A stretch of DNA of 64,000 bases from Yuukianura sp. NJ FZ-2021 (Eukaryota). The notes below the pieces were generated by a model that was not told the origin of the DNA, did not search any database, and saw only the letters and a list, made by a program, of their open reading frames with translations. Where the stretch lies: positions 12,400,001 to 12,464,000 of the forward strand of contig CM102290.1 in the NCBI GenBank assembly GCA_046563655.1, written 5' to 3'. This document shows, piece by piece, positions 1,622 to 62,050 of this stretch. The position numbers and the translations under genes were made by a program. Within the stretch, counting starts at the first letter, position 1; every line of letters begins with the position of its first letter.

Positions 1622-4588
1622 TCAGAACTCAAAGGTGGAGCGAGAGAAGTGGATGGGATGAGAAGGAGAGCGAGCTAGGCGCTTCTTTGGAATCTTCTCT
1701 AGGCTCTTCACGAGGCGACCAAAGTCTGGACGATCTTCGGGTTTAGATGACCAACAAACCATCATGATCTCCTACAAAATCAATCAAAATAGGTTAGATG
1801 CAAATCAAACAGTTTGATTTTAGAGAAGTTAAGTTAGGTCGGAAATTGTCGTCTCACCTTTGCGTCCCTGGAAAAGAGTGTGGGCAGCGGCTGTCGTATG
1901 CCACTTCCGACTTGCCAAATGACAGCTTCAGGCGGAAGTTCTTTGTAGGGCCACTCTCCGCACAGAAGTTCGTACCATACAGTCCCAAAGGCATAAATAT
2001 CCGAGCCCTTAGAGAAAGGCAAGTCACTCTCAAGCTGCTGAGTGGGCGTCAAGCGGAGCATGAGCTCTGGAGCCAAGTAACACAGCCAACCAGGAGGAAT
2101 GCTCAGACAGTCACCCATGCTAACGTACAAGAAAGGTGGAATTAGTTTACCAACGTAACAGAAATTAGACTAAAATTATTGACATTACCTTCCACCATGG
2201 CACAGTTTAGTGACGCTGAAAAGCCCAAAGTCCGTGATTACAACTTTCCCACTTTCGATAAAAACGTTTTTGCTCTTCAAATCTTTGTGGATGATTCCTC
2301 GGGCATGGAGGTATCCCATTCCCTAGCAACAAAACAACAATAAGTTAGTGACAAGTTGGGAGTCATTTTTTTTTAAATTGTAAATTGTAAAAAGTTACCT
2401 GTGAAATCTGTTGTGCGATGAGAACAGTTTTGTTCATGTTGAACTTGTCACGTCTTAGGTGAAGGTGTGTGTAAAGAGAGAGGCCTTTGCACAGGGATGT
2501 TACGATTGCAAGTCGAGGTGGTTTCATGCAGGCACCCATAAACAATATGAGGTTCTCGTGCCGCGTTTTCCGAAAGATTGCCACTTCTTGCTTGAAATTA
2601 TCCAGAATCTTTCCGTTGTCCAAGTACTTTTGATCCAAAACTTTGACGGCGACATCTCCATGCCAGTTTCCTCGGTAAACTGTCCCAAAGTGCCCAACAC
2701 CAATGACTTCTTCAAGTTTTAACTCGTCGAACGGAATCTCCCACTCTCGATTTGACAACTACAAAAAGTTAAACCGCAGCATTAAGTCATATCTAAATAT
2801 ATGAATCCGGATAAAACTGTACAGTATTGGCCAAGTACAAGTACTGCCAAGCATATTATTGCTACTAGCAGCAAGTTCTGGACTTACGGAATTTTGTCTG
2901 GGGGAACTCCGATCCACTGCATCCAAGTCTGATTCTGATACTTGACTGTCTTGACTATCAACACGAAGTGCAATTGTCTTTTCAGAGTCGGGGCTACCGG
3001 AGCCCGAAGTCTGGGAAACGGTTCGGTCAGAATCATTTGAAGCCTGTGTGCTAATCATATCACTACTACCAACGGAATCAACCATACTCCTACCATCCGT
3101 TTGGAAATCTCCACCCATCGGAGTAACATCTAAAACGAAAAAAATAACAAAATAATTACAACAACCAACTAATCGATTACATAATATTTAACAAAGGCGT
3201 TCAAAGTTTAAATGTGACTGGGAACTTACCTGGAAAGCTAAATAACTGTGTTTGTGCGGATGCTGAGGCTGGAGTGGGAAGAGCAGCGGCAGCGGGGGCA
3301 GCAAAGAGTGCAGGGCTGGAGCGGGTGGAACTATTACAACTCGATGTATTGGAACTGGAATCAGGGCCCTAAGAAATGTTCAAACGAAATGAGATCTCTG
3401 ATCCTTATTCAAAATGATTGAAATTAAACACAATTTGGTGACAGTGGTCGCGTCATTTTGGCTTACCGGAAATTGTATTGAGATATTCTGAGGTGGACGC
3501 GTTACTTTTCGTAGACGACCCGTATTCAATGGAGAATTGCGATTTGACATCGGTGACTCCACGCCACCTGAAACCACATACATAGTATCAGTTAATTGAA
3601 TGCTTTGACTGTTTTCAAATGTTGCAGCGATTCAAAATCCTTACCTTCCTGCAAGGATTTAACAAAGACGTCGATCAATGCGGCTGGAAGACCACAACTG
3701 GGTGGGACTTTAGGTTCGCAGTCTCGATGGCACTTGAATTTGCATTCTTTGCACTTGACGCCGTAGATCATTTGCTTGAAGCAGTAGTCACAGGTAGCAA
3801 CTTTGAATATCTTGGAGAAACGGTGAGATATCATGTGACCCATGGATCGAGCCACGGTGGGGGTTCTAGGTGACCGTGGAACCTGCAGAGTCGTACCTGG
3901 AAAACGATTAAGGTTCGAAATCAACCAATCAGTATTCCTGTAAACTGTTGAACGAATTCTTAAAAAATGTAAAGTTAACTCACCTCTATGAGACGCATCA
4001 ACATCGTCAATTTCAGAGTGGGCATTGGAAAGTGGTGATTTGACTGGACTTGACGATAACGAAGATCCCCCTCCAAAATCTGCAAATGACGACATACTGG
4101 CCGTTGCATCCCAGGCTGAAGTTGAGCTAACCCCAATGCCTGAATCTGGTGCTCGATGATCTCGACGTCTCATGTCGTGTCCCGCACTGGTGCCTGAATG
4201 CGTATTGACAAATGGTGACTTGACAGGACTGGAAGTGAGGGACGAACCCCCAAACTCTGCAAAGGATGACATGCTGGATGAAGTGTCCCATGTCGAAGTT
4301 CTAACTGCAACTATTGAAGCGAGTCCAGGCTCTGTTGGCAGGCGCTCCCGACGTTTCGGTGCTAGCTGCTCCAAGCTACACAACAAAACCAAATCACAGC
4401 TTAATTTAAGCTCGTTAATCTTAGTAGTCTTATTCTAAATATACTTTCTAAGCTAGTACTTAGCAGTACCTGATTGCCCGCGTCCACTTGTTTGATCTGC
4501 TGTCTTGATAATCCATTATCGAAAACTTGTTTATACAGACTGGTGGCATTTTCCCATTTCTCTTGCATAGTGGACTGTCCTTCACCAT
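1622..4588 (-). CDS. ksr: Kinase suppressor of Ras (KSR2-like) scaffold/pseudokinase, multi-exon
   Basis: C1 zinc finger ([44 protein letters not shown]), Ser-rich [12 protein letters not shown] segment, FSFP ERK-docking motif (~3230-3243), Raf-like kinase domain ([66 protein letters not shown]) and KSR-type tail [16 protein letters not shown]; stop at 1622-1624. Start at 4588 inferred from splice phase and an upstream in-frame stop; 5' end less certain than the identity. Confidence 0.92.
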
Positions 4589-7085: not shown

Positions 7086-9899
7086 ATGATTTCGATTTCT
7101 GTTTTTCTAAGTTTTTTTCTGATTACATTTTCGTCACGTGCCGGTGCTAAAATTCATATAAATGTAAGACAGTTAATTCTGAAATATTAAAATTTGAACG
7201 AAAAATTAAATTTTAAGTTAATTTTGAAATATTAAAATTTGTAACGAAAAATTAAATTTTAAGTTCATTTTGAAATTATTAAAATTTGAACGAAAAATTT
7301 AATGTAACATTACCTTTTTTTTTATAAAAAGGAAACAGATTTCATTCTAATTGGAAATAAAACAAACTTGGAAATTTTGAATCTAAAGCCTCAACAGCAC
7401 AGAGTCAACGGAGAATGTACTTTGATCAACGCCAAATTCGAATTTGTACAGTTGCGCAGAAGTGACATAATGGAGTTTCTGAGCAACTGTTATAATCTGA
7501 CCTCTTTGAAATTGAACAACGTGACCTGGGAGTACAGCAAAGGTCAAAAGCTTCCACGCATTCATCTTCCCGCCCTGAAAATTTTTCAATTTGAACCAAT
7601 CATTGACGGAACAGCGACATGGACAGACTCCGACATAATCTCCGCAGTTTTCTTCTATACAAACAGCACTGGAGATCAGACAGGCTTGGAACCGTTGCAA
7701 GATTTACATGTGCTGATGTCTATTAAACTTGGACGAGATGGCTACCTGAAGATTGAAGACAAAACGTTAATGGTCAACAGAGTCCGGAACCAAAAAATGT
7801 GGACCATGCTGTACAAGATTTGGACAAAATTTGACAAATTTCTATCAGAACGGAGTGTGCTGGACGTTACTATGCTAAATCTGGAATCAATGAAGCAAAT
7901 CACATCAAAATGGGACCATCTTGGAGACGGCACCATGGCACAACTAATCACGTCGGCCAAGACTGCCGAAACTATGACACTCTATTCCTGGGAAGACGAA
8001 GCCATCGACATGTCTCTTCTTCCAGCCAAGTCCCTGGTCAAACTTGAAGTGAAGGATTTGAGTTTCCGCTGGACATCACATGACCCCACAGGTCACGTAT
8101 TTCCAAATTTGGTAATACTGGACATATCCTATGGCGATATTGACGTTAAACTCTTTACGGCTCCAAAGCTCGAAGTTTTCTACATCGATAATTCATACCT
8201 ATGGAACTGCAGTATGACCGACATTTTCAAAACAATGCCAAAGATAACATCTTTCTTCTTTGGCTGCCAATTTTTTGAAGGAACTTGTCCTGTACTGGAT
8301 TTGAACATTTTTTCAAACACGTCTGTGAACTACTTCGGCACCGAAAATGTAGCATTACATGGAAATAATGTGACTAATCCTCTGAAATCTCTGGAAACGT
8401 TGGACCTACTTCAGGCTCAGGTTGACGAATCCGTTTTTCAGAGGTTTAGTGAAATCTTTCCGAATGTGTGGGACGTTGGAGTGGAAATTGAGGACGCCAT
8501 TTCTGGATCCTTTCTGCAAGACATTGTCAATACAAATATAACTTTACTGTATGTTCACATTCACCCCGCAACACGCCAGCACATTATTGCCAAGTTTATT
8601 CATTTGGTCGAAACGCACATGAGCGTCACCCTTTTGCCGAACGTATTGGAAGGCGTAAAGTACATCACTTTCAATAGATCTCGTGTTGGATCTGCATTTA
8701 GCGACTTTATCTACAAGGAAGGAAACATTGACCAGCGCTGGTCGTACAAGGAACGACGAATTGACGATTTGCTGCGAGAACATGGATTTTCCAAGCAAGA
8801 TTTAACACAGGAAGTGCTCGACAGGATATATTACACATATACTATATTCGTTTTTACCGTATGTTCTCTCGGTATTCCATGCAACTGCTTAAGCATTCTC
8901 GTGCTCATGCGCAGATCCATGCGTAGCTCAACGAGTTATCTCCTGCTGTGCTTGGCTACGAGTGACTTGCTCTACTTACTCACGTCGCTTTCAACGGCTG
9001 AAGAATTTCGTAATCTGTTCAGAATTAAACTTCAACGGTCGCTGTTCAACGGATACTTTGCATATCCACTCAACATCACAAGTAAGATCAATTTTTCAAA
9101 AAATTTGAAGTTTGCTTTCACTTTTTGAAAGAAAATTTTCAATTTTACTTTTATTTTATTTTTTCAGTGTACACCGCTTCCGTGTACATGACAGTTCTGA
9201 TCACTCTAGAAAGATTTGTTGCCATTTCGAAACCGCTGCAAGTATCGTTAATTTTCACTGTGAAAAAAACCGTGCGCTACGCCATGCTCGTTTTTGCGTT
9301 TTCCATTTTCGTCAACGTGACACGGTGGCTGGAATTTGTAAAATGGGACTATGAAGCGTCATCCCCACTTTGGAGTTCCCATTACCCGCGTCAACTACAC
9401 AGATTCCCGGAATATCAACTTTTTTACCAACAAGTTATCTGGAATGTCTTCATTTATGCAGTTCCGCTCGTTGCAATTGCAATCCTCAACCTCATGATCA
9501 TTTCAGAAGTATCTAAACAAAATAATTTTTGATTGCAATTTTTTAAAATTATTTTTCACGCTAATTTTTTTGTTCATTGTTTAGGTAAAAAAATCGGTTA
9601 AAATGAGACGTACAAACACCGCCGTTTCACAGCAGCAGCAACCGCAAGACAATTCTCTGACCAGGATGTTGCTGATGGTTGTATTCATCTTCTTTGTGTG
9701 CAACTCTTCCAGTGCAACCATCCACTGGATTTTTACTTCCAAAGAAATTGAGCCAGAGGTCACTGAAGCATTTGCTTGTTTGCCAATCCTTGTCAACTGT
9801 TCAGTCAACTTTATCCTGTACTACTTCATGGGCACGAAGTTTCGAAAAGAGTTCAAGGTCATGTGGAGGTCAACATTCAAATGTTTTAACGGAAAATAA
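7086..9899 (+). CDS. Class A GPCR, FMRFamide-receptor-like 7TM, with signal peptide and ~480-aa LRR-like ectodomain (about 827 aa)
   Basis: Exons 7086-7163, 7332-9081, 9168-9508, 9585-9899 join in frame with GT-AG sites. N-terminus MISISVFLSFFLITFSSRAGA looks like a signal peptide. 7TM motifs: GIPCNCLSILVL, LATSDLLYL, YTASVYMTVLITLERFVAI, YAVPLVAIAILN, NCSVNFILYYFMGTKFR. Confidence 0.85.
7173..7300. repeat. ~45-bp AT-rich tandem repeat, about 3 copies, in GPCR intron 1
   Basis: ttaattytgaaatattaaaatttgaacgaaaaattaaattttaag repeated with small indels. Confidence 0.8.
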
Positions 9900-12949: not shown

Positions 12950-15900
12950 TTATTTGTTTTGGACTTTCACTGCAGCAGTTTTCTTGGCTTTGGCCTTGGT
13001 AGCCACTTTACGTTTTTTAGAAGGCGGTCCCTTCAAGCGCAATTTGTATGGCTGCAAAGTTCCTTTGCGCTCCACCGGTTCAGCGTTTCCGTCCCCCTCA
13101 ACATGAAGTGCACAGTTCCAAGTCCCCTTCGGCGTAGCAGTGAGATCGACGCAGTGGAGGTGGTACGCTTTAGCGCAACCATCGAACTCACACATGAGCA
13201 GCTCTCCACGCATCCCGCAAGTGGCACACTCGTCTTCCCATTTAGCTTCATGTACATGGTACTCCTGACTTCCCTTCTTATTTCCAGCGGGCTAAAAGAT
13301 AAAAAAAAATAGTGTTCCAGTATCAAGTTGGAATAAGTACATTATAAGTTGGCGATGGCACTAATAAACTTACGACCAGATTCTCCTCATTTTCACGACG
13401 ACGTCCAATGACTCCCTTGCAGTTAACAGCTCGACAAAAGCAGTTGAACGAAAAAGTGGACTTGGTTCCATAATTGTAGTCGAAAGTCAGTTCCTCTCCA
13501 GCTTCGATGTCTCTCTTGGCAAAGATTCCAACGACACGTTTCCCTTGAGCACTGTCGTACTTTACAATTCGGCAGTTTGGATCACATGAGTGATTGATCA
13601 GTCTTCCTATGTTTCCATAATACTCGGCATCAATGAAAGTGGAGGAATCAATCTCCAAGAAATACAACGGATCATCATCTGCTTTTCTTTGAACCTGCAA
13701 TCAAGAAAAGTATGATCGAATTACGCTTTGAAACGAAAATACTTTTATAATTACAAATACTAAACAGTGTTCTTACTCTCCACATCACTTCGTCCTTGGA
13801 GATTACTTCCCCGATATACTCGCAGAGATAAGTCCCTTCGGTAAATGCAGCCATAGCCTTAAGTCCCCACCCCTTCGTGGACGGAGAGACGAAAGTTTCC
13901 AAGAGATGTTCCTTGTTCTGCTTCAACGTGAACATCCTATTCTCGCATTTGTCGTTTCCAGAGCAATTGGTCGCATTGCACTCCACGGCAGCGTCCCTGC
14001 ACGCAAAAAACAATCGGCATTATGAAAGTACACGGTCGAGTGGATGGAATATGGCGGTTGCAGCATATTTTTGTACTGCGCTAAGCGCTATACTTACCGG
14101 TTGAAGCAACCTGAGTTTGGAGTACATTTGGGAGCATCGTCCTCTTTATCTGTACCACAGACACATCGCTCTTCATCTTCGTCATCATTCTTACGCTTCC
14201 CCCCATTCTTCTTTGCGCCATTCCGATTAACAGCACTCATGTGAACCCGGTACAAATTTCTATCAATCTTCTTGAAGATTGGCTCCGGCTAATAAAAATT
14301 AACCACTCAATTATCACAATTATGTACAAAACTTAAACATGAATAGAAGGAAAACTGCATGATTCGTCTGCAAGTTACAAACTGCAACTTATTCAATACA
14401 AATAGTCATACCTTGGGCAATAGCTTGTTTCTATTCTCTTCCGAATACTTGAGAAGCTGGTATGCCTCCTTAGCTGCCTCCCCAACCTTGTCGTTACTGA
14501 ACAAGTTCAATTTCTAAAAACAAAAGAAAAACGATTTTTGAATGCTCAAATCCAAAGATTTGTTTTTGTATTTGAAAAATAATGATGCTACTTACCTTCA
14601 AAAAGTCTTTATTTCCAATCTCAAGCGGGAGCGAGTCTCCAGTACGGCCATTGTCGTAGAACTGGATCGGATAGCCGCAGTAGCCGACAGAAAATTGTCC
14701 ATCTTTGGTAGCTCCACGAGCAGCTCCATCTTTCGGGTACAAGATCATAGAGGGCCAGTAGCTACAAAGTCAGAAAAAAATGCAATTTAAAAAACCTTAA
14801 ATCTAGTTAACTTTAGTTAAAAAGTTTGTATATGATTACATGGATCCTGGTTGCTGAAACCACACGACTTGTCCATAACGAGGAAACATTCCCCACAAAC
14901 AGGCTTCGCACTTGAAAGTTTTCTGCAACTCTTCAAGTGAAATACCTGCCTTCAAATGAAACTCTCCATGAACACAAGTGGCGTGGAAAGAAAGTGGGCA
15001 GAGACTGCAATTCACCACGACATCGTTGGACTTGAGTTCTAAAACAGAAATAACATAAGCAACCGTATGAAAGCCAAAGTAGTTAACATTATTACAACTT
15101 ATTTACTTACTTGAGCTGCAGGTGAAGCACCCCAATCGCTTATTCTTCCTGGCCGGTGCCTTATCCCTGGCATGTCTTGGACAGATCAAAAACTGGTTCT
15201 TCATAATGTTGTTGCCGGTTCCAGCAGGAATGCAAGAGGCTAAAAACATAGACAAACAGGAATGAAAATGACGGAATAAAATAAAAAAAAATCAAAGATT
15301 AAATGAAGAACATACGCTTATGGTATGCTGAGAGGCAGTAGAGGCAGCGAATAGCTTTGGAAGGTTGAAGACGGTAATCGCGAACAATGGCGGAGTGAAG
15401 ATGCTCTGCCTTGCAGCCATGACAGAAATGAAGTGGGCAAGTGATGAGTCCATTGGATCCGATCACATCCGCCTGTGGCCAATTGAACACAAGACAGTCA
15501 CGGTGGAACCGAAGATCGCATTTCGGAATTGAGCACTTTGCGGGCACTCCAAATACTTCAGAGTCTCCCTTCTTGCAGATGAAACAGACTTGTGCAATAC
15601 AGTCGTCGCACTTGAACTTCGTGAGAACATTTTCATGTCCATCCACATCTGTAACAACACAAAATGGTGTGACGATTTAGGAAAATAAAATAACAATCCA
15701 CTAAAATACTTGTGTATTTACCTGGCGATTGAGCAATTTGGACTTCTGACAAACACGACTTGTGGAACGGATAGTCATGACAAGTTGCCACTTCGGTTTC
15801 GTCTGTCATCTCCTCCTTACATTTCGCACAACATACGTAGGGCTTCGAGTCAAACTTCATTGCCTTGTCCATCAAATCGAATTTCTCCAATGTCCAAGTT

Positions 15901-18018
15901 TGGAGAGCCTCCCCTTCCAAGCATTTTGGTCGAAGCAATCGAGACGTGGTAGCCTTCTTGGCAGGGACAGTAGTCGGCGGCTGATTGGATTCTGCATCCT
16001 GTTCCTCCGATTCCATTGGGGCAACTTGGGCTGACGGCACGCTGCTGGATGGATAGTTCCATTTCTTAGTCACCGGCGGTTTCTGACGCAGCCCGGAGGC
16101 TGTCCGAATTGTTTCGTTGAAGACCAGATTTGCAGTTGATGAACTCTGTGTAAACCAAAAACTCTTAAGCAATCGAAGAATTATTATTACAATTATAACA
16201 CTAAAGTGTAAAATTGTAAGTCGCTTCTCGTTCTGTATTTCAAGTTAAAGAATAACGATATGCCTACCCCAAAAATTCCAATACTTTTTCATACCTGAGC
16301 TGGATCACTTGCAGTTTGTTTTTCAGCTTTCTTGATGTCACGACTTTCGGATGTCGAACGCCGAACTCTGGCTACTTTCGTCTTTTGCTTCCTTTCGTTA
16401 TTGAGCTCAACAAACTTCTTTTGCATGAATTCCTGACGATTGTGATCCGACACATCAACGAGTTCTGTCATCATCTCGCAAGACTTTTCAAACGAATTGG
16501 CCAGGGAGAACTTGCGGCTTTTTTGCTTGTGCAGTAGTTTGTTGAGGTCGTTCACAAGTCCTTTCTGCAGCTCCATACGATCGAAGTCCACTTCAATTAT
16601 GTTCGCCCACTTTATCATACCAAGCCTGAATTTTGGCTCAATGAACATCACAAAAGCAAATTCCTTCGCCAGTTCCGCGTCAGGCACTCCCTCCTCCTCT
16701 CCATCTCCTAAATATGTAACAAACAAAACAATGAGAAAATCCATAACACTAAACCGTGATAGCGATCCTACTTGCAGATAATCAGGACAAGAAATATGAC
16801 TCCATAGTCGTTAGTTACAAATAACAAGTAAACGAAACGATGTTACCTGCAGGAGGAATGGGCACGACACAGGCAGGCCAATATACAGAGCCTTGATCTT
16901 GTGCCCATACAAGCGCACCGTCATCCAGGATCCTTATGCATCTGAGAAGAAGTGGATCTTCCTGGAGCTAAGAAAGAGAAAGGATTACAAATATCAAGTG
17001 TTGGTTCATAACTGAATTATTTTTACAGAATGCTTACATTTTTCAACTGCGCAGTTATAGTAGCTTTTTTAGAAGATTTGCTGGAAATAGCACGCTTCGG
17101 AATTGGACCAGCAGGAGTATTTTTCGATGCTGATTGGAATTCAGATTCATCTACAACTTCTTCGTCTGGTTCTGGCTTACTGGGAAGAGTAGCCTCTGCA
17201 ACAGCAGGAGTACTTTCCTCTGTCGATTGAACTTCGGATTCAGCCACGATCATTGCTTTCTCTTCGTCAAGAAGAGTCGGCTCTGCAACAGCAGTAGTAC
17301 TTTCCTCTGTCGATTGAACTTCAGATTCAGCCACGATCATTGCGTTCTCTTCGTCGGGAAGAGTCGGCTCTGCAGCAGCAGTATTACTTTCCTCTGTCGA
17401 TTGAACTTCAGATTCAGCCACGATCATTGCGTTCTCTTCGTCGGGAAGAGTCGGCTCTGCAGCAGCAGTAGTACTTTCCTCTGTCGATTGAACTTCATAT
17501 TCAGCCACGATCATTGCGTTCTCTTCGTCAGGAAGAGTCGGCTCTGCAACAGCAGTAGTACTTTCCTCTACCAGTTGGACTTCAGGTTCAGCTACAATCA
17601 TTTCCTCTTCGTCTGGTAGGATAGGTTCTTGAAGCGTACTTTCCGCTACCGGCCGGAATTCAGATATAGTGACCACCATCTCGTCGGGTGGGACATCCTC
17701 CGGAGCAGAAAGAGTACTTTCCTCGAATGACTGCGTTTGATATGCAGCTGCTACAACGATTTCGCCACCTTCGTCCGAATCCATAGACTCCGGAGTAGCA
17801 AGACCACTTCCCTCGGCTGTCTCGAACTCCGATGCAGTTACCATCATTTCGTCCTCTTCCTCGGGAACAGCATACTCCGCAACAGCAAGAGCGCTCACGG
17901 CCGAGCCGAATTCAGCTTCAGTTCTTTGCGTTTCTTCTTCGCCGGGGAGCTCCGGCTTCGGAACAGCAGCGGCACCTTCCTCGCCCGGCACTTCAGATTC
18001 GGATTCAGTTACCGGCAT
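12950..18018 (-). CDS. NSD: NSD/Mes-4-family histone H3K36 methyltransferase, multi-exon
   Basis: PWWP1 (GALVWAQDQGSVYWPACVV, ~16850-16920), several PHD fingers (CFICKK...CSIPKCDLRFHRDC, CPLHFCHGC, CSLCPLSFHATC), PWWP2 (PRYGQVVWFQ...YWPSMIL), AWS, SET (KGWGLKA, EYIGEVIS, GNIGRLINHSCDPNC, GEELTFDYN), post-SET (CFCRAVNCKGVIG) and a C-terminal PHD (EDECATCG...CAKAYHLHC...WNC). In-frame stop upstream of ATG 18018. Confidence 0.9.
17182..17613 (-). repeat. Coding tandem repeat, 87-bp (29-aa) acidic unit, ~5 copies, in NSD N-terminus
   Basis: DEENAMIVAESEVQSTEESTTAAAEPTLP x4 near-identical plus one divergent copy; more degenerate copies extend towards ~17860. Confidence 0.9.
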
Positions 18019-19711
18019 TTCGTATGCTCCTTTTCTTATACAATGATTCGAAATTCGTGGTCCGATTCAGCACTCGGACACAACAGTCTGGAAAAAATGT
18101 TGGGGATCAGTATAGCTTTCCGTCTTTATAAATTATACCTAACTTCTTATGTTCTGCATGTCCTTATTCGGTAAGGCGTTACAGGCTTAGTTAAAAAACT
18201 ACCAGTCAGTTGAATGTCTATGTGTTAAACGATAGATTTTACGTTAATCCTCAGAATCAGAAGCTAGCTTTACTTTTACAACTTAACTCACCAGACGCAA
18301 TGGCCAAGAAACTGGTTTTTTTTTTTCTCCCAATGTATCTAGTATTTTTAACTTTACCGTTCTTTCAACGTCCGGTCCACAGTAGCAGCAAATGATACAG
18401 AATCAGAAATCGATGCCAAGGATACAATATGTCCACTGGAGACTACTGGAGAGCACTTTGCTTCCTTGACCTTTCAACAGGAGATCCAAACACCAAATGA
18501 CAACAACCTGTAGATAATCGCTCCTTTCTGTTTTGTAAAGGAAGCTTAAAAACCCCTTTGAAAAAAGCAAAGGAGGGAAACCTTCGCCTCTATTTGAAGC
18601 AGAGTTATGCGCCACTTCAAAATCTAAACCTTCCCAAAGTAGGCCTCAATCATAACAGTGAAGTTAGACTTCCATTATTAAGTGCAAGAATGATTTATCA
18701 TTAATTAACTTACCCTAATTAGTAAACAATTAATGCTGGTTAACAATGAATACCAATGTGAAGTACTGCAGTTGCCTGGTAAAGCGAACTACGCAGCGCA
18801 TACCTCCCGATTTCTCTCCCTCAGTTTTTGAGGACCCCGGCTTTTTTCCCGCTAAGAATTGGTACCAGAGATGGACATCCGTCAGAAGTTGTAATCGTGA
18901 ACTTTGACCTTCTTTTAACGTAAACTTTCATGGAAAATTATCCTTGTATTCTGCCTTTTAGAGAAACGGTTTTCAGGCTATAAAGAGATTTTTGTTTATG
19001 AATTGTGGTTAGTTCTACATATTCTCGCCCAGCAGTATGTTCCCTTTCTTATTTAGCCTCCGACGTTGGGTTGGCGTAAGGACAACCGAATCAAATGTAA
19101 CCAGCGCTGCCATACATGTAAGCCCAAAGCCGCTGCAATGACTGGTAACCAGCGTTTAAATCTTTTCTTTCTCCCATTTCACGTTTTACCAAGTTCGTAA
19201 AGCGAGCCCCCTTCCAAAAAAAATTTATTTTAAAAATTGCAATTTGTTTTTCTAATTTTGTTTCCTCTTCCATTTCACTTTTTCCGTTGATTGAAACCAA
19301 TTCTAAACGTTTCATGCAAACAAAAAATTTCTTGGTGGGAAGGGTACCCCCTTTGCGTGTTTTTAAACTTCCGGTTTTTCAGCTTTTCGCAAATCTTAAG
19401 GGGAGGGAGAGTACCCTTATCATAAAGAAAACCCTTTTTTCTTTAGAAATACATTTTATATTATCGAACACTATCCTATCAATGTCCCGAGCCTAGAATC
19501 ATGTTTCCTTTTGTTTTGTTTGTATTTTGGCGGTTGTCATGGACACCGTTCAGGTTCCTAATCCAATGCTTTTAGCGAGTTTAGCACTGCAGGTATTGCA
19601 ACCTGCAGAGGTTCTGCTTCTGCTCCTTGTTTATCCAGGACTTTGCACAATTTGACTCCGCTTGGTCCAGTTTAGTTTCGATTTAGTCACCTCAGAGCTG
19701 TGGAGCCGGAA

Positions 19712-22700
19712 ATGATCTCAGATTCTGGAGATCTAGCCACCACCACCCAGAGGTCAACGGGCAAAACAGGAAGACCAAAAAGTGCTACCGTCCCACCAAC
19801 CCACGAGGCCCACCACACACATCCATCGACCCATGTAAAATTTAACTGTTGTTTTAATTAATCAAACACTTTTAAATAGAAACTCAGTACACTCACAACC
19901 TAGAAATTTAAAAAACCGCTGTAAAGGCAATACTGAAGTAGCGACGGTGAACTTTAATACTGTAACCTCTCAATTTGTTCCAAAATTAGCACCTTAGCTT
20001 ACCACACAGATTCTCCTTTCAATTGTCCTACATTAATTTTAATTAAAGTTATCTTAATTAATGCTAAATATTGAATTAAACATTATTTTTGTATTTAATA
20101 ACTAATATGCTTATTAGCAGGTCCAGCCGAGAAAGGTAGCAAAAGTGAAGCCGAATCCTAGAAACGTGGAACACTCCGTTCCCAATCCAGGTTCAGAAGG
20201 TCAAGAACAGTCAGTAGATGGAGGGTCAGCCTCACTTCAACCGAATGTTACCGAACGCACAACCGCTCCTCCCAGCCGAACTTCAACCAATCCCGTGTCC
20301 CCATTTTCCGAGTCAGCTACCAACACCGAATGTAACCAGCTCATCCGACAACTATGGAACCTCAGAGACGAACTGGTGGAATTCCATCTCAAGGCTTCAA
20401 CCGTCTTGACCTTGGCTAGAAAACAGCTCAGATTGGTGCAAAAGCAAAACGAGGTCAAAAGGTCACAGGTTATCTCCAGCTCCAAGCTACTTCCTCAGAG
20501 TCCTGTTGAACTAACTCCGCTTGATCCATCACTTTCGGACAAAGTGGAATCTAGTCTCGCGTTTCTGATTGGTTTAGACCAGACGCCCAATCAAGAATTT
20601 CCCGCGTCGCTGAATTTCTTCATTCTTGGTCTTCAGAATCTCATGGACGCTTTTGTTCGAAACGACGAGCAGTTTCATGGTCTCCCGGCTGCTGCTGTAC
20701 AGTGCAGACCTGTGTTATACACAAAGGTTAACACAATTCAAAGGTCAATGACCTTTGACCTTTAGAGGAAGAAAACTAACAATTTATTACAACTTGTATT
20801 AATTTTAGGTACTACATGCTCGAAAGTACGTCGTTCATGACTATTTCTCAATTCTTCACTGTATTCATCAACTCATCGCTACAATCGTTCACCTTCTGGC
20901 CACATCTATGGCCATCACTGGTCCAATTTTAAATGACAATTTTTTGGCGGTCTGTCATTTCACGGAAGTCTATAACATTTCACTCGAGGCTGCTCTGTGG
21001 CGACCTCGCGACGAGGTCAAAGGTCAGGCAGAGCAAGGTCAACAAGGATCCTTGACCTCCAACAAAGATAAGGGAAAAATTCAGATTTTGCAGAGATTAT
21101 TTGGAGCCATGCAGAACGACGCGCCGTGGTTGCGCATGAGTCTAAAGCCTTTATCAGCAACAAAGTTGCTCACTTTCTACCTCCAGAAACGAATTCAGCC
21201 AGTGTCTACAGCATTTATTGAAGCTCTGCAGCTCAGTTTTCAGAAACAAGGCGTAACTAGTGACCAGCCAATCACAGCAGAGTTCCGATCGGATCTTCTG
21301 GAAACTTGTTTACAAGCAGAGGAGACGCGGCTACTTCAATTCCTGGCTGGGCTGTTGGAGACGCCTTCTCTACTGGGAAAACCCGCTGTGCAGAACAAGT
21401 CCATCAAGCGTCTGCGCAGAACGCTTGTGCACTACTTCTACGATAGGCTTTTGGCATGCGTCGGAGAAGCGGCAAAGGAAATGCTTCTTTGGGGCCGACC
21501 GAATCCGCTTGCACTCGAATCCACGTCGAGCGGAACGCAGCAGAAGTATATGCTGGGTCTAGCCATTGCCGCACAAATCACAGGTCGAAATTTTAACAAT
21601 TTTTGGTTGACTTTTTTTTTTTTTTCAAAATTTTGAATTCTTTTTGTTTCAGGTGGCAGCAAGGTGTCAGAATTCCTACCTGTCATGGCGTCAGTGAGCA
21701 AAGCACTTCGTTCTTTTACGCTTTTCTTTACGTGGGACCAGCAAATCCAAGGTGCCTTTGAAATTGCAACGAAACTCAAGCGTCCGGAACAAACGCAGCT
21801 CCTGCCGAGCATTGACCCTGCACAGTGGGCGACCACTATTGGTCAGCACTTTGCACACATTCTTACCACTGTGCTGTTACTCATGGACGGCCAGTCTCCG
21901 TCGAATCCTGATCAGGCTCAGTCAGAAATCATAGCCCCTCACTCCAACCAATTCAACTTGAGTGACGAAGAATTGCTGGCAGAGGAAGCACAAATGCTGT
22001 TTCGGTTTGACGCAACTTTCTTCTACTTTGTGGCTTGGGTCACGAAAAGAAGCAAGTCGTGGCTCAATAGCTGGGCACTGCCGCAGTTCCTCGCAGCGTC
22101 ACAGAGGGACACACACCATCTCTGGCTACTCATCAACTCACGTCAGGTTAGGGTTAACTTGTACTCGGTCACCTAATGAGTAGGGATGTCAAACATATTT
22201 ATAGTCTCCATGCCCGTAATGTTAACAAAAGATATTTTGTCTGACCACTGAAGGTCCATGTGACCTTGACCTAACGTGACCCCAAGATGATCACTGATCC
22301 AAAATCTAAATATTTTCAGACAATACTCATCACACGTGACATTCTACTCAACAGCAAAAGCACTTCGGTTTGCTTAGCTGCTAAACAGCGACAACTTTGT
22401 GCCGACGATTTACGCAGTACCGTAGATCTCCTGCACGTAAGTTGTGCAATTTTTTCAATTTGAAAAAAAAATCGCCGACTTAAACAAAATTTGAGCTTTT
22501 TATAGAGTAAAAATTTTATAGAGTAGATTTGAATTTTTTTAAACAGGGGTTGCCAAAAGAGGCTCTGGAAGACGTTGGTCCGATTTGTCTGACTTTGAGT
22601 CTAGCCACTTTGAGGTCATGCATGCCACAGCCCAAGCACTGGGAGGGCGTTGGCCCAGGATGTGGCCTTGACCCGGACAATCCGTCACCTTATGTTCAGA

Positions 22701-23946
22701 CCTTCATCGGTAAGACTTGTAACCTGCTCCTTGACCTTTGACCTTCAATTTGACCTTGACCTCTTGTAGGCCGTGTCATTGAACCCGCAATAGAAGCATC
22801 AGTCCAGTATGTGAGTGCCACAGTCCAGGAGGCCATTGGAAAAGAAGTTGTTCACGCAGCCTCAGATGCTTGGCTCCAGTACATTCTCCAGCGAAAAATC
22901 AGATTCAGGCAAGGTTGCTATACCAACGAAATAGTTTTCCCTTAACAGGTTCGGCAATAAGTCCTGTTTTCGAAAAATCTTGAGTATAGATATTTTTCTA
23001 CCTTATTTCTACGTTTTTTGTTTTTTTTTCTACCTTTTACTCCTTTTCTACTTTGAATTTGCCAATTCAAAAGCCATCTCTCCGAATTTTTTAATTCCGT
23101 TTACAATACCAACCGCGATTGAAACTAGGTGAATTCAGTTTTGAAAATTTTTCGCAAAAAACTTAAACTCGAGTTATTGTCTAACCTGTTAAAGAAAAAG
23201 TATTTCTTTGTTTATCCACCTTGGATTCTGGTATAACCTACATAAAAAACTTCAAAAAACTTCTCACAAAACAAAAAAGAATTTTAAGAACTTTCAAAAC
23301 AAAGTTTTATGAAAAAACTTTGTGGGTGATTTATTATTAAAAAAAACTTTCTATTTTACTGCCAACAGTGAGTGGGGTGCTGTTCAGCTTCTGCGTGACT
23401 TTACGGCTCTACGTGAATGGATACGAGATCAAAATTCGTTAGCTCCGGAGGCGCGAAAAGCCATTTTGGAACTGGAAATTTTAAAGTGCTGTGAAGGCGT
23501 CGGATTCTTGCTTCTGCGTAGTCCCGGGGACATTCTGGGTGTTGGGAAAGCAGTGGAGCGGCGTCGACGCCACTCCCCATCTCCCGGTAGTAAGTTTTCA
23601 AAATTTTGAAAAGAAACAATTTTCGCGCGGAAGACGCGAGTTCCCTAATACCACTCTTAAGATTGATCGATGCTACCACTTCATTCTGGCCTCTTGACAC
23701 AGAAAATGGCCTTTGATTGATGACAGTTGTCATGACACAAAGCAGAAATGATTTGAAATTAGTTTCTCTTTGTACAAAAAGATCAACGGCCATGTTTTGT
23801 TTCCAGCGTCGTCACAAGAAGCATCTCCATCACTGTCAGCCTCTGTGACCCAGGACGACATTCCACCAGAAATGTACGTCTCTAACCAGCAAATGTGGCT
23901 CCAGCTCCGTCTTCGACCAAGGACACTCCCATTCTACTGCTGCTGA
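19712..23946 (+). CDS. CCDC142: Coiled-coil domain-containing protein 142-like, multi-exon
   Basis: Spliced C-terminal region reads PSPYVQTFIGRVIEPAI...DAWLQYILQRKIRFSEWGAVQLLRDFTALREWI...CEGVGFLLLRSPGD...IPPEMYVSNQQMWLQLR, resembling CCDC142 as recalled. Exons include 19712-19834, 20121-20726, 22770-22908, 23369-23586 and a last exon ending at stop 23944-23946. Start codon uncertain. Confidence 0.75.
22910..23223. mobile_element. CAAGGTT-terminal MITE, subfamily C, inserted on a CCDC142 splice donor
   Basis: Termini caaggttg...caccttg, subterminal ttaacaggtt/aacctgttaa, 8-bp TSD gattcagg (22902-22909) / gattctgg (23224-23231). Confidence 0.85.
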
Positions 23947-24255: not shown

Positions 24256-24477
24256 CAAAGTTCTTAGACAAAAAAAAAGCTTTTTCTACACCAGGTTGTC
24301 TAGTAACTGGATGTTTTAAAACTTGTTTTAAAAAAATCTATTTTTCTGTGGTAATTTTTTGCATGTATTGTAAATGGGATTGGTGCATGAATTTGTTTGA
24401 AGTAAAATTATTGGAGGTATTGGACAACCTGTTGTGGGAACTACAATTTGTTGTATTTCGGTTGTCAAAGAACCTTG
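24256..24477. mobile_element. CAAGGTT-terminal MITE, subfamily A
   Basis: caaagttc...tttctacaccaggttgtc...ttggacaacctgttg...gaaccttg; 8-bp TSD gcgaacgg/gcggacgg. Confidence 0.85.
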
Positions 24478-25866: not shown

Positions 25867-26089
25867 CAAGGTTCGTAAACAAAAAAAAAACTTTTCTACA
25901 TCAGGTTGTCCAACAACTGAAAGTTTTAAAACTCCTTTGAAAAAAACTGCCTTTCTATGGTAATTTTTTGCGGGTAATGTAGATATAGGATTATTGGTGC
26001 AGAAATTTGTTTGAAGTAAGATTCTTGGAAACCCTGAGGTATTGGACAACCTGTTGTAGGAAATACAATTTTTGTTGTCAGCAACCTTG
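25867..26089. mobile_element. CAAGGTT-terminal MITE, subfamily A
   Basis: Same ends as the other A copies; perfect 9-bp TSD gatgaaaat. Confidence 0.9.
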
Positions 26090-27790: not shown

Positions 27791-28041
27791 CAAGGTTCGT
27801 AAAGAAAGAGAAACATTTCCAACACCAGGTTGTCCAATAACTAGGGTTTTTTAAATTTTTTGCCGAAATTTTCAAAAATGAAACCGGTTAAACTTTACCT
27901 CCATTTGTATATCAATTTTTGACTACTGTCCATTTTTTTTCTCTTATTCTATGCGATTTCGTCTGAAAAAATTGGGGGGAAAATCGTGAGTTATTGGACA
28001 ACCTGTTGTAGGAAATACAATTTGGTTGTCGAGGAACCTTG
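27791..28041. mobile_element. CAAGGTT-terminal MITE, subfamily A
   Basis: Family ends; 8-bp TSD tgtgttcc/tgtgctcc. Confidence 0.88.
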
Positions 28042-30986: not shown

Positions 30987-31209
30987 CAAGGTTCCTAAAC
31001 AAGAAGGAAACCTTTTCTACACCAGGTTGTCCAATAACTCGGAGTTTTAAATTTTGTTTGGAAGTAGCAAATCTGCCTTTTTATGGTAATTTTCTTGCAA
31101 GTAATTTAAATGGGATTGCGGTGCTAAAAGTTGTTTGAAAGTATCTGAAAACCCTGAGTTATTAGACAACCTGTTGTAGGAAATACAATTCGGTTGTTAG
31201 GGAACCTTG
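30987..31209. mobile_element. CAAGGTT-terminal MITE, subfamily A
   Basis: Family ends; perfect 8-bp TSD ggtagagc. Confidence 0.92.
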
Positions 31210-32375: not shown

Positions 32376-32640
32376 CAAGGTTCTTTGACAACAAAAAGTG
32401 AATTTTCTTTAACAGGTTGGGTACTACCTCGCTTGTTGACAAAAAAACAAAAACAAAAAAATTAGTGCCAAGTGGTACCAATCCAAAAACTTAGTACCAA
32501 TTCGTATGCACAATTTAAAAAATTCGGCTTTATTGTTATCACTACAATGCCTTGAAAGGAAAATACACTTTTTCTTATAAAATCGGAAAGCATGAAATAT
32601 TACCTAGCTTGTTAAAGAAAATCGAACTCAACAAACCTTG
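32376..32640. mobile_element. CAAGGTT-terminal MITE, subfamily B
   Basis: caaggttctttgacaac...aacaggttgggtactacctcgcttgttgac...caacaaaccttg; degenerate 9-bp TSD agcacggta/ggcactgta. Confidence 0.88.
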
Positions 32641-34123: not shown

Positions 34124-34375
34124 CAAGGTTCCTTGACAACGAAAAGTTAATTTTTTTACACAGGTTGGGTACTACTTCGCTTGTTGACAAAAGAGCGAAA
34201 AAAAAAATTAGTACCAATCCAAAAAAAAAAGAAGGTACCAATTCGTATGCAAAATCTAAAAAATGGCTGTGTTGTTATGACTACGATGCCTGAAATGAAA
34301 ATGGGATTTTTTTTAATCAAGAAAACATGAGGTATTACCCAACCTGTTAAAAAATATCAAAATCAACAAACCTTG
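34124..34375. mobile_element. CAAGGTT-terminal MITE, subfamily B
   Basis: Aligns end to end with the other B copies; TSD decayed. Confidence 0.85.
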
Positions 34376-36419: not shown

Positions 36420-36725
36420 CAAGGTTTCTCGACAACGGAATTGTATTTCCTACAACAGGTTGTCCAATAACTCAGGGTTTTCAAAAATCTAGCTTCAAAC
36501 AACTTTTCGCACCATTTTAGCACCAATTTTGTTTATACATTTTCCCCATTTTTTCAAACTTTGAACGCTTGAAATCGCGTAGAAATAAAATAAAGGTCTA
36601 AAAGAATTCAAAAAATGCCATACAAATGGAAATGTCACAGAAAACTTTGGCAAAGCATTGAAAAAAAAACCAAGCTATTGGACAACCTGGTGTAGAAAAA
36701 GCATTTTCTTTGTTTACGAACCTTG
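36420..36725. mobile_element. CAAGGTT-terminal MITE, subfamily A, opposite orientation
   Basis: Reverse-complement arrangement of the A ends; TSD gcaataag/gctataac. Confidence 0.87.
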
Positions 36726-38684: not shown

Positions 38685-38973
38685 CAAGGTTACTATAGCG
38701 CCTATTTATCCAATTGCACTAACAGGTTATGCCATAACTCCGGTTTAAAAAAAAACACGAAAAAACAACTTTTGGACCAATTTTGTTTATTTTCACAATA
38801 ATCTTTTGAAATTTTTTAATTTTCACGTTGCTGAGCCATAGTTTTGATTTCGAATTGCTAACGCAACAGAGCCGTGTCAGATGTACGTTTCAAAAAATTT
38901 GAAAATTTAGAAAAGGATTTATGGTATAACCTATAAGAAAAAAACAAGCAAAATTTCGACTTAAACAACCTTG
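38685..38973. mobile_element. CAAGGTT-terminal MITE, subfamily D
   Basis: caaggtta...aacaggttatgccataa...ttatggtataacct...caaccttg; perfect 8-bp TSD ggtacgta. Confidence 0.88.
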
Positions 38974-39581: not shown

Positions 39582-39851
39582 AAAGGTTCCTTCACAACGA
39601 AAAGTTAATTTTCTTTAACAGGTTGGGTACTACCTCGCTTGTTGACAAAAAAAAACGAAAAAGAAATTGCTACCAATTTTTGGTATCCAAAAGTAGCAAA
39701 AAATTGTTACCGATTCGTATGCAAAAATTTAAAAATTCGACTGTATTGTTATGACAACGATGCCCTGAAATGAAAAGACACCATTTTGCAAAATAAAAAA
39801 ACATGAGGTATTACCCAACCTCTTAAACAAAATCACAGTCAACAAACCTTG
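39582..39851. mobile_element. CAAGGTT-terminal MITE, subfamily B
   Basis: B internal sequence; perfect 9-bp TSD ccaaaggga; first base of TIR mutated. Confidence 0.88.
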
Positions 39852-42871: not shown

Positions 42872-43130
42872 CAAGGTTCCTTGATACAGAAAAGTCAATT
42901 TCCTTGAGCAGGTTAGGCATTACCTCGCTTGTTGACAAAAAAAAAAAAATTAGTACCAATTTAGAACAAATTCGAAAAGTTGGTAACAATAATTAATATG
43001 CATTTAAAAAATTAGCTGTATTGTTATGACTACGATGCCCGGAAATGAAAAAATACTTTTATTTTGCAAAATCGAAAAACATGAGGTATTACCCAACGTG
43101 TTAAAGAAAACCAAAAGTCAACAAACCTTG
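42872..43130. mobile_element. CAAGGTT-terminal MITE, subfamily B
   Basis: B internal sequence and both termini; decayed TSD catgtctt/catctcta. Confidence 0.85.
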
Positions 43131-46924: not shown

Positions 46925-49900
46925 ATGAAATCCACAATGTCAAGTGAGGAAGGACTGGAGGAGGCCGGAAGAGACGAAAAGCTCGAGGAATATCTCTCTG
47001 CCCACCCCGAATTCATTGAAAAATGGCTCCAGGAGAAAGTCAGTCCAGAAACCCGCCATAGACTCCTCAAAACGACATGGTCCAAAGGTCGTCCGGGGTC
47101 AAAGGCCGGGGTTAACAACCACCATCACACTAACAATACCTCTCACGACAACTCCAATGACCAAGACAACCAGCCTCTTCCTCCAGAAGTCGAAGACCAA
47201 GAATGTCCAGGTCAACTTCCCTCGTCAATTTTCCCAGCGTTCCATCCCCACCATGGTTTGACAGAAGAGGAGTCTCTGACTATGCAAAAGTCACAAGCCA
47301 GGTCCAAACGGAACTCAATTACGTCAGATCGGTTCCAGTCCTGGTTGTCCACTTCAGCATCAACTGCTGTGTCTCCGAAGCACAACAAGCCGGAATGTCC
47401 AGGGGACAGTAGTGGAAGTGAGCCGGACATGCGCCTGGGCGTGGTTGGGAAACGTTCGGGGTTGTCACGACTGGAGGAATTAGCGGAGAGTGAACTGTTC
47501 ATTGAGCTCGTGAAGGACATTGCCAATGAGCTGAACATTGACATCCTGTGTCACAAAATCCTGGTGAACGTTGGCTTTCTGACGCAAGGTGACCGCTGCA
47601 GCCTCTTCCTCGCTCGTGGACCAGAGGAGCAACGCTACTTGGTTGCAAAACTATTTGATGTCACAGTGGATTCGGGTGAGAATCACTTCAGAACCACTTA
47701 AGGGTCCAATCCTTAGGCGAAAGTACACAATCCAGTTCAAATTACCTAAATGGTTCCATTTTCTTGATGCTAGGACACTTCTGGTCGGGGAAAAGTGGAA
47801 CAGCCAAAGCATAGTATAGCTTGTATCTCGTAAAAGTTTGATTCAGAAGCAATAGTAGCTGTCCTAAAGCAAGGTTTCTTGACAACGAAAAGTTAATTTT
47901 CTTTAACAGGTTGGGTACTGCCTCGTTTGTTGACATAAAAACGAAAATAAAATGGTACCAATTTTAATTTTAGCACCAATCCGAAAAATTGCTACCAATT
48001 TGTATGCAAAATTTAAAAAATGCGGCTGTATTGTTATGACTACGATGCCCTGAGCCCTGAAATGAAAAGACACTTTTTTGCTAAATCAAAAGACATGAGG
48101 TATTACCCACCTGTAAAAGAAAACAAAGTCAACAAACCTTGGTCCTTAAGTGTCCGTCCAAGGGAGTTCTGGAATCCCATTCTGCGACTCCCGCTGGCCT
48201 GAAGCACCAGTGGCAGTGCACTTACTATAGAATGTGTTTGATTTAGGATTTTTATGTTGTTAGAACCAAACCCTTGAGGCCTACTTTTAATGCCCAACGT
48301 ATCTCTGTTCAGAACTTCACTTCATTTCAAATTTCGCTCCATTTTTGTCATAACTTTTTTCTTTTCATTTGCTAGATTTTTGCTTCTAATGTAACAAATT
48401 GACACGAAAGTTTGTTTAATTCATTTTCCCCCAAACAGCAGACAAAAAAAATTGGCCTCGTTTTCTTGCGTGTTGTTTCACGCACGCATCCGGCTGTAGC
48501 GGTGTACTAACAAATTTTTAGTAAGATGCGAGACAAATGCGTGCTGTTTTTGAGTTTGCAAAAGTTTTTTTTTTGCTGGACAAAGAATCCAGAGTGGATG
48601 AAGTCGACGGTAACTGATAGCGTTGCACTACCAGATTACGAGCTGGTGAAAGTAGAAAGCACAAGGAATACGAAATTTACTTGAAACTGGTTAGACTGAA
48701 ACAGATAGCAGAAAACACGATCATCTTCACCGCTTTGGAGAATTTTTTTTTACTTATTTGAAACTGGGCTAGACTTGGCGGTCGATTTTATTTCCTTCCT
48801 CACGCCTATCGTTTCAAAAAAAAATTTCGTTCCCAAAAATTTCTAGTCTTGTAAAACCGCCTATAAAAGTGGTATGACGGGAATTTGATTTGGTTTGCGC
48901 AGAAGTGGAGGAGTCATTGAGCAGAGCTCAGGCCGAAGAGATCCGAATTCCATTTGGAGTGGGTATTGCCGGTCACGTGGCTCAGCTCAAAGAAATCGTT
49001 AACATCAAAGATGCTTACAAGGTAAGCACTGCGAAAAATCTTCCAAAAATGTTCCAATGTTCGAACTTATTGTTAGTGTAAAGTTTAAAATTTAAAAAAA
49101 AATCTAGGACGAGCGGTTTAGTAAGGAAGTTGACAACCGGACTGGCTACAAAACGTGCAGTATTCTGGCCTTACCCATTTGCAATAACGAGGGCGATGTG
49201 ATTGGTGTGGCTCAAGTCATCAATAAGAAATCAGGCGACCACACCTTCACCCCTGCTGATATCGAGGTGAGAAACTTTGCAGTTCTAGGACAAATTAGTC
49301 CGCTTGAAAGCAAACCTTTACCTAGATCATCAAATTTTGTAGCAAAAACAATCTAACAACCTCCATTACTTGTTAGCAACATCGATTTTACAACTATTTC
49401 ATCGCATTGGTCCAATTAAAATTGGTTCAACTGAAAAAGTTCAAAACTAATTAGGTCGAACGTCATTTCGTTCAAAAGTAAAAACTTCAGCCGACTTAAT
49501 TAAAACTAACTTAACTTCAGCCGTTTGAACCATTTGAACCTCAATTATTTTAGATAATTTATTTCGAACCTTTTGAACTAATTTTTTCGAACCTTTTTAT
49601 TTGAGCAATTTCTTTTCGAACCATTTCCATTTCTACCATTATAATACACAATGTTATTTATTTGACACAATTGGTATGTAGACTTTTGGATCAACTTTTT
49701 CCGACGATTTTATTTGAACCTTTTTTTCGAACCATTTGATTTGAACCAATGACGTAATACATAATATTGCTTTTCCATAGGTTTTTGAGCGGTATTTGAC
49801 CTTTTGCGGAATTGGGATTCAGAATGCTCAGCTCTTTGAGACGTCAGTAGCCGAGTACAGAAAGAATCAGGTACGTCTTTTGTATTAGTAGTAAGTAGTG

Positions 49901-58137: not shown

Positions 58138-58981
58138 GAGAACAGATTGAAATACATTTGAACGAATTAATCGATTAATTGATTCTATACCTTTTAACTA
58201 AATTGTTAACATTCCCGCGAGTATCCTGATCTACGATGCAACTTTATATTCAGAACGGGTCGTCCATGTTTAGAGGAGCGAAGCTGTCCGAAACAAATCT
58301 AAAAAAACTAAAATCCTTCCTAAAATATTCAGAAAACTGAAATTTTGAATTTTGAAACGTTTGGGCAGTTTGGTGATAATCTGATATCCCAAAAAGTTAA
58401 GTTTATTATTTAGAATTCATACCCATGACTTATTGTAGGTGATGCTGAGATAAATGATGCTAAACAGGGGTCACGTGACCTCAAACAGATTACGCTTAAT
58501 ACTAAAGTAGCATTGAAAAGTGTAAAGTTTAACAGTTTACGATTGATGACGATTGGTGCAATTACAAGGTTGGACACGTTCTAAAAAGTAGTTTATATTT
58601 CCAGGTCGTGTGTTCTTAAATCGTCAGGTCCTTCTGGACTCTCAATTTGAATCTATATTAAAAAGTTATTCATGTGAATAATGTTATGTAGAATTTCAAT
58701 AAACTTATTATTGTCCAGTGTTACTTTATGTTTAGGTGGTAGATTTCAAAAAAGTTATTCAAATATTTCGTAATGAAAATGTCTGTTGTTTCCCATGGCA
58801 ACAGGATAGCTTTTTGTTGTTGTTACCATGATGAGATGATGACGTTCAGTTTGAAAACGTCGGTTTACTTGTTCCATCAAAATTTCCACGAATCCGGACC
58901 TGCGCAAAGCGCTGGGTGACTTTGTAACCAGGTCCCAGGTTAGGATTGTCGTCACCCAAGTCACCTCCTCCAGAATCCAAG

Positions 58982-61614: not shown

Positions 61615-62050
61615 TTAAGCGGCAGAACATGAATGGACATGACTTGAGCCTTGTTCCTTACATTCACATTTTCTTCTTTATTTTCTTCAGATTAATGTAT
61701 TAGGAATAGTGAGTCAAGAGGTTGGAGGTCAAAGGTGAGACCCTGCTGACGCGTCTAGAATGAGTAATTAGGTTTGTGGTTGTGTTGATTGACGCCTCCT
61801 TTGTTTTAGAGTAGGGTAAATAGTAAATGGTAAGGATGAACTCTGGATATGTCCCAATGTTTGGTTAGTTCTAGGAATGGAAGGCATAAATAAACCTAAA
61901 GGCATAGTTCCTACTTGCATGATTCTCAGAACAGACACCGTACAGATTGACAGTGATTGATAAAGTAGCGACTAACTTTCATATCTCAAGTCCATTCTAA
62001 CCAGCGAAGTTAATATTAGTAGTACAAGCTCATTTTTCCATTTTGCAGTC

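Follow-up and report, generated by a model that had tools for sequence, protein, structure and literature searches.

The window analysed here, a stretch of 64,000 nucleotides, carries a MITE whose left end lies directly behind the first base of an intron in a CCDC142 homolog, and the account that we consider probable is that its insertion replaced the GT donor of an old intron with a GC donor, that the major spliceosome uses the resulting GC-AG intron and that the mRNA is unchanged. The genes of the window (animal DNA) are most similar to those of springtails, with Orchesella and Allacma proteins as the best named matches; among the protein matches listed, none is an annotated protein from this DNA itself. 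The CCDC142 homolog was mapped in part, using tblastn with Orchesella dallaii and Allacma fusca proteins, the Pfam profile PF14923 and homology-guided junctions, and its last three coding exons frame the intron in question:

20178 to 23946, + strand: CCDC142 homolog, the part mapped by homology, starting at about 20178 and closing with the stop codon TGA at 23944-23946
22770 to 22908, + strand: coding exon ending ...AAA ATC AGA TTC AG (homology, PF14923 and junction scan)
22909 to 23368, + strand: the present intron, GC...AG, 460 nt (sequence and junction scan)
23369 to 23586, + strand: downstream coding exon, opening T GAG TGG and encoding the best-conserved part of the protein (donor at 23586, alternatively 23589)
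23807 to 23943, + strand: last coding exon, followed by the stop codon

The intron is in phase 2, the upstream exon closing with the first two bases of a split serine codon; the acceptor AG lies at 23367-23368 and the next exon opens with the T at 23369, which gives the borders CAG/GCAAGG...CAACAG/T (here and below, a slash in a donor or acceptor motif marks the splice boundary). Against PF14923 the upstream exon alone scores 15.5 bits (E 0.0079), less than the gathering cut-off of 25, the frame running through the acceptor reaches E 2e-11, and the downstream exon exceeds the gathering score with 42.8 and 43.8 bits; a further CCDC142 exon scores 28 bits against the same cut-off. The two exons are collinear on the profile, the upstream one covering positions 281-323 and the downstream frame positions 324-377, so that nothing is missing or added at the junction 22908^23369. 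In the Orchesella and Allacma orthologs (P0006, P0007) the stretch ...K-I-[KH]-F-S-E-W-G-A-V... runs ungapped across this junction, and in three protein fragments from gene predictions of other relatives (P0003-P0005) the resemblance begins exactly at S-E-W-G, which fits a common exon boundary.

The same boundary emerged from a junction scan, in which all in-frame, stop-free GT/GC/AT...AG/AC junctions within 22772-23588 were translated and scored against the Orchesella protein. The top score over this range, 406, belongs to 22908^23369, compared with 381 for the best GT-AG alternative, 22933^23373; every in-frame GT-AG alternative loses or swaps conserved residues, and 22908^23369 is the sole junction to yield the conserved protein. 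As judged by homology, these results confirm 22908 as the last base of the exon and 23369 as the first base of the next, which would make GCAAGG the start of the intron. All mapped CCDC142 exons are open, and among 45 columns of the downstream exon that are invariant in six relatives 41 are kept and four are altered in the protein of the window. The other introns placed in the gene are GT-AG throughout (6/6). At the first of them (20726-20809) the alignment to the ortholog extends about 11 residues in frame into the intron and two tblastn segments overlap on the query; the best-scoring GT-AG junction there is 20726^20809, and the overlap looks like chance similarity.

The remainder of the window was annotated roughly, with Pfam and tblastn:

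1800 to 4450, - strand: kinase with a C1 domain
9086 to 9896, + strand: rhodopsin-type GPCR
12950 to 18100, - strand: NSD-like SET/PHD histone methyltransferase
46979 to 57873, + strand: GAF-domain cGMP phosphodiesterase with at least 17 coding exons
61267 to 62936, + strand: SRCR-trypsin protease

As a separate observation, the 13-mer TGACCTTTGACCT occurs seven times exactly and 16 times with at most one mismatch in the window, compared with 0.15 expected from shuffles (sites include 20749, 21014 on the - strand, 22732, 32959, 39976 and 57302, all three on the - strand, and 57449). Several of these occurrences are in short introns, including two in CCDC142, and one falls within a coding exon. 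The flanks of the sites are unrelated, so the 13-mer stands alone as a motif and does not belong to a repeat element. Read on the other strand it is a direct repeat of AGGTCA with a one-base spacer, which we take to be a putative nuclear-receptor DR1 site.

The insertion itself comprises an element with terminal inverted repeats (TIRs) and a target-site duplication (TSD) on either side:

22902 to 22909, no strand: left TSD GATTCAGG, consisting of the last seven exon bases and the first G of the intron
22910 to 23223, no strand: MITE, 314 bp, termini CAAGG...CCTTG, no long ORF (inverted-repeat, family-profile and TSD analyses)
22910 to 22973, + strand: 5' TIR (nhmmer against the family TIR profile, E 3.6e-14)
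23165 to 23223, - strand: 3' TIR (nhmmer against the family TIR profile, E 1.8e-13)
23224 to 23231, no strand: right TSD GATTCTGG, a 7/8 match to the left copy

The sequence between 22910 and 23223 is a real MITE with TIRs and a TSD. Its ends match each other as reverse complements at 78% over 60 nt, from the terminal base onward, and its internal TIR arms (22924-22969 and 23165-23210) are 80% complementary over 46 nt. Among 200000 random pairs of 8-mers taken 200-330 nt apart in this window, a match of at least 7/8 arose with a frequency of 0.00078. The left TSD straddles the exon/intron boundary, as can be read from the local context (22900-22916, cagattcagg/caaggtt, with the slash at the left edge of the element; 23214-23236, tccaccttg/gattctgg/tataa, with slashes on either side of the right TSD). 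No ORF of at least 70 aa lies inside this copy, and no transposase domain was found in the 153 ORFs scanned among the 207 ORFs of at least 70 aa in the window. An earlier note, made from the letters of this DNA, had claimed that the exon ends at 22908 and joins 23369, leaving an intron that begins GCAAGG, and that a MITE had inserted on the splice donor; the exon boundary is borne out by PF14923, the two springtail orthologs and the junction scan, and the insertion by the TIRs, the 7/8 TSD and the further copies of the family.

Those copies were located with a family TIR profile built from 12 ends, which matches 25 sites in the window but no site in either of the two related loci described below (L001 and L002). 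All but one of the matches (24/25) pair into 12 elements of 222-314 bp, each beginning CAAGG (two with one changed base), the unpaired remainder being a partial TIR near 38694-38751. The family is small, non-coding and multi-copy, as befits a MITE, with 12 paired copies in 64 kb, imperfect TIRs of about 60 nt and duplications of 8-9 bp. Pairing by the TIR profile gave, besides the copy on the CCDC142 donor, two subfamilies:

24256 to 24477, 25867 to 26089, 27791 to 28041, 30987 to 31209, 36420 to 36725 and 50544 to 50850: MITE subfamily A
32376 to 32640, 34124 to 34375, 39582 to 39851, 42872 to 43130 and 47870 to 48141: MITE subfamily B

Pairwise identity is about 70-88% and 76-82% in the two subfamilies, and the CCDC142 copy resembles the other copies in its TIRs only (73-79%). 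Flanking duplications are found at 11 of the 12 elements, one copy having an ill-defined right end. Their register is mixed: seven copies have an 8-bp register (one scoring 8/8, three including the CCDC142 copy 7/8, two 6/8 and one 4/8) and four a 9-bp register (two scoring 9/9, one 8/9 and one 7/9). The CAAGG terminus and the 8-bp duplications fit hAT features, namely an 8-bp TSD and a terminal motif of the YARNG type; in view of the 9-bp cases, hAT is no more than a candidate superfamily for these elements. Of the 12 copies, nine occupy the 23-kb intergenic gap between the CCDC142 and phosphodiesterase genes, a density of roughly one copy in 2.3 kb. Two more are found in phosphodiesterase introns, where the closest mapped exon edge is 196 nt away from one and 105 nt away from the other, and the CCDC142 copy is the only one in the window that touches a splice site. 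Within the window, the profile found no copy in 1-22900 or in 50851-64000.

Three donor-like sites then bear on what the insertion did to the intron, each given with a flank score from a donor weight matrix:

22909 to 22914, + strand: predicted GC 5' splice site GCAAGG, its G from the TSD and its CAAGG from the terminus of the element (6.99 bits)
22914 to 22915, + strand: cryptic GT within the TIR, aag/GTTGCT (-1.4, above only 2 of the 22 donors placed by homology)
23231 to 23236, + strand: putative relic of the original GT donor, GTATAA (-2.07), the counterpart of GTATGA in an ortholog

That ortholog came from a scan of metagenome contigs, using an alignment without the short upstream exon, which found two loci. 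The first, L001, is a clear CCDC142 ortholog, sharing 81% identity with Orchesella over the downstream exon, and an intron of about 1.6 kb interrupts it at the identical phase-2 codon position. Its exon ends AAG TTC AG, its intron begins GTATGAAT and its acceptor reads tttcag/TGAATGG, and the locus gave no match to the family TIR profile. The sequence of the window after the right duplication begins GTATAACC, so that removal of the element and one duplication leaves the donor TTCAG/GTATAA, compared with TTCAG/GTATGA in L001, which is the single element-free genomic ortholog compared and a distant one (68% nucleotide identity over 137 exon bases). In the second locus (L002, 803-1060 of a 1490-bp metagenome contig) a distant CCDC142 homolog reads ...K-F-S-E-W-G... 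uninterrupted, the intron being absent, which could reflect either a gain in the springtail-like lineage or a loss elsewhere. Since L001 has an intron at the same position without the element, the intron is older than the insertion; being absent in L002, it is not universal. Taken together, the GT donor of L001 and the relic GTATAA in the window make conversion of a GT to a GC donor by the insertion the best reading, and on these comparisons it is well supported. The earlier note had proposed just such a conversion of a GT-AG into a GC-AG intron and had predicted TTCAG/GTATAA for an element-free relative; L001 comes within one base of that prediction, at the same phase-2 position and with no element.

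The weight matrix was built from positions -3 to -1 and +3 to +6 of 22 homology-placed GT donors in the window, six from the CCDC142 homolog and 16 from the neighbouring phosphodiesterase gene; it is small, and at least two of its donors (21583 and 51145) are uncertain in placement. With 6.99 bits the GC site scores higher than all 22 donors under leave-one-out (range -5.3 to 5.9), and none of the other GC dinucleotides on the + strand (2426 in total) attains this value. The predicted old donor, CAG/GTATAA, has a flank score of -0.37. GC donors are described as offsetting their weakness with a stronger remaining consensus (PMC3167603), and the present intron has the sequence features of a U2-type GC-AG intron, namely GC at +1/+2, a 3' AG and an otherwise strong donor consensus. 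The relic GT now lies 322 nt inside the intron and is preceded by CTG instead of CAG, and splicing at the GT at 22914 would add 5 nt and shift the frame; the arithmetic of the earlier note was correct on both the displacement and the frameshift. If the element were retained, read-through would run into a stop 13 codons on. Use of the GC site by transcripts is likely, an inference drawn from its being the sole junction that restores the conserved protein, from its best flank score and from the conservation of the downstream exon.

Three other routes to a working transcript were considered and rejected. U12-type donors are of the RTATCCTT type, and a U12-type intron is ruled out by the donor, whether in its present form (GCAAGGTT), in the relic (GTATAACC) or in L001 (GTATGAAT). 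A twin-intron route, in which the element would leave first and restore GTATAA, is ruled out by the lack of GT...AG borders in 22910-23231. Skipping of the upstream exon as a rescue is also ruled out, as this exon measures 139 nt, which is not a multiple of 3, and its loss would shift the frame.

The sequence of events that we propose would begin with a non-autonomous DNA transposon inserting into an existing, conserved phase-2 intron of a springtail-like CCDC142 gene, at a staggered cut that covered the last seven exon bases and the first G of the intron. With this 8-bp target duplicated, the exon end and the G at +1 would have survived on the left side, and the CAAGG of the element would have taken over intron positions +2 to +6. 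The old donor, presumably CAG/GTATAA, would thereby have become CAG/GCAAGG, and a copy of the old GT would have moved 322 nt downstream; without the element and one TSD copy, the intron 22909-23368 measures 138 nt. The C at +2 excepted, the new site matches the U1-pairing consensus better than the presumed old one. The major spliceosome most likely uses this GC-AG donor, so that the element would leave with the intron and the mRNA would stay unchanged, and the gene presumably remained functional after the insertion.

Readings that depart from this account have to be weighed against the same evidence. That no transposition took place, the donor having always been GC and the inverted repeat and 8-bp repeat being due to chance, could appeal to the imperfection of both the TIRs (78%) and the TSD (7/8), but we give it next to no credence: both ends match the family profile (E 3.6e-14 and 1.8e-13), 11 further paired copies belong to a family with TSDs of its own, a 7/8 TSD has a chance frequency of 0.00078, and the relative L001 has a GT at the site. 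It is extremely improbable, too, that the mRNA uses another in-frame GT-AG junction, for example the donor at 22933 (ata/GTTTTC) with the acceptor at 23372, by which an element-derived insert would replace Ser-Glu. This junction is in frame and stop-free, yet its donor has a flank score of -9.45, below all 22 homology-placed donors, its acceptor lies inside the conserved exon, two invariant residues would give way to nine encoded by the element, and its homology score falls short (381 vs 406). A weightier objection, though still an unlikely one, is that the insertion damages splicing, with the element mostly retained or the GT at 22914 used and the GC site used little or never, leaving a hypomorphic, null or polymorphic allele or a decaying gene. 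The predicted RNA fold of 22890-23250 is a long imperfect hairpin (MFE -74.4 kcal/mol, z -3.84), the stem of which is lengthened by both TSD copies and the last exon bases and has the GC donor at its base. With intron positions +2 to +7 in the base of this predicted stem, U1 binding could be hindered, and the hairpin may affect how accessible the donor is or how the pre-mRNA is processed as double-stranded RNA; on the other hand, U1 is able to bind co-transcriptionally, before the 3' TIR is made. GC donors are also intrinsically weaker and more slowly spliced, according to PMC3167603, whereas the context of this GC site is the best donor context in the window. The mapped exons are all open and 41 of the 45 invariant columns are kept in the downstream exon, which counts against this reading. 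The copy resembles the others in its TIRs only, which precludes a consensus-based insertion age and makes the case for gene intactness since the insertion a soft one; the assembled allele could be polymorphic or slightly deleterious. Even so, a TSD with one change and the 12-30% that separates the other copies speak against a very recent event.

A further reading holds that the CAAGG(T) terminus is a selected mimic of a 5' splice site and that introner-like MITEs of this kind are tolerated at donors, or spread through them, seeding GC-AG introns genome-wide. After a G the terminus does give G/CAAGG, a near-consensus GC donor, introner families with a splice site that is part TSD and part element exist (PMC9860276), and introner-derived GC-AG introns are described as prevalent in some dinoflagellates (PMC11282704). 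Nevertheless, we regard such selection as very unlikely: the intron predates the element, only one of the 12 copies in the window lies at a splice site, with nine intergenic and two at 105-196 nt from mapped exon edges, the right end of the element has no AG acceptor, and the main texts of the introner papers searched make no mention of springtails, Collembola or arthropods. The earlier note had suggested that the TIR makes insertions splice-tolerant in the manner of introners, and what the window shows does not support that suggestion, given an intron older than the element, a single splice-site copy among 12 and an element that brought no acceptor. The match between CAAGG and donor positions +2 to +6 is best explained as a chance agreement that let one insertion survive, and not as an adaptation of the family. 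A related reading, that the CAAGG terminus is a ready-made 5' splice-site core which leaves a working GC donor wherever the target ends ...AG/G, and that such insertions are recurrently tolerated on donor sites and form a measurable source of GC-AG introns in these genomes, strikes us as unlikely; if true, the family would be intermediate between ordinary intronic MITEs and introners.

Replacement of the GT donor by a GC donor can be set beside several systems in which transposons supply splice sites. In the classic Ds and Ds1 cases of the Wessler laboratory, terminal regions of the element reportedly supply a splice donor or acceptor after insertion into a gene. As in these hAT-type elements of maize, the end of a non-autonomous transposon would serve as a splice site and all or most of the element would leave the transcript. 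The Ds cases are mostly insertions into exons or exonisations with altered or mixed transcripts, whereas the present insertion lies at +2 of an existing intron, the donor is GC and not GT, the TSD preserves the exon end, and no change to the mRNA is predicted. The non-canonical introns of Fritillaria borealis are said to be of MITE origin. They have AG-AC and AG-AT borders (PMC11282704) and share with the present case a tie between non-GT introns and transposon insertion. That phenomenon is genome-wide, with an adapted spliceosome and non-GY borders, as opposed to a single locus of the standard GC-AG type.

Introners are similar in their construction, being elements with TIRs and a TSD in which the exon end and the G at +1 come from the target and the rest of the donor from the terminus (PMC9860276). 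GY donors have been described among them, and GC-AG introns are prevalent in some introner-rich dinoflagellates (PMC9860276 and PMC11282704). Unlike introners, the MITE created no new intron here, as L001 has the intron without the element, it holds no acceptor, and the copies in the window are mostly intergenic (9/12, with two in phosphodiesterase introns and one on the donor). GC donors in, or made by, transposon sequence are likewise on record: GC 5' splice sites occur in human exons derived from MIR, Alu and LTR sequences (PMC3167603), and in Arabidopsis CMT1 GC-AG splicing of the whole Evelknievel retroelement, in about 25% of events, restores the mRNA (PMC6238269). These are new exons or a low-efficiency rescue of an insertion in an exon, whereas here a conserved constitutive donor was apparently replaced outright. 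The usual explanation for a GC-AG intron is a T-to-C change at +2. The present intron shares with such ordinary cases the U2-type GC-AG borders and a strong remaining consensus (PMC3167603), but the route would differ: an insertion of 322 bp, element and TSD together, would have altered +2 to +6 at once, in place of a single-base substitution. A literature search of incomplete coverage returned no case in which a transposon insertion at +2 had replaced a conserved GT donor with a GC donor, and no account of such elements in springtails.

As a single locus the case is an anecdote, a neat variant of a known theme. One practical consequence is that gene predictors restricted to GT-AG introns will break the CCDC142 homolog at this site. 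Splice sites contributed by transposons have been described chiefly where new introns (introners) or new exons arise and where an insertion in an exon is rescued by leaky splicing; the outcome at this locus would be a further one, in which a conserved, constitutive GT donor is swapped in one step for a GC donor made of one duplicated target base and five terminal bases of a MITE, with the mRNA unchanged, and it would thus provide a natural example of a target-site duplication protecting an exon end.
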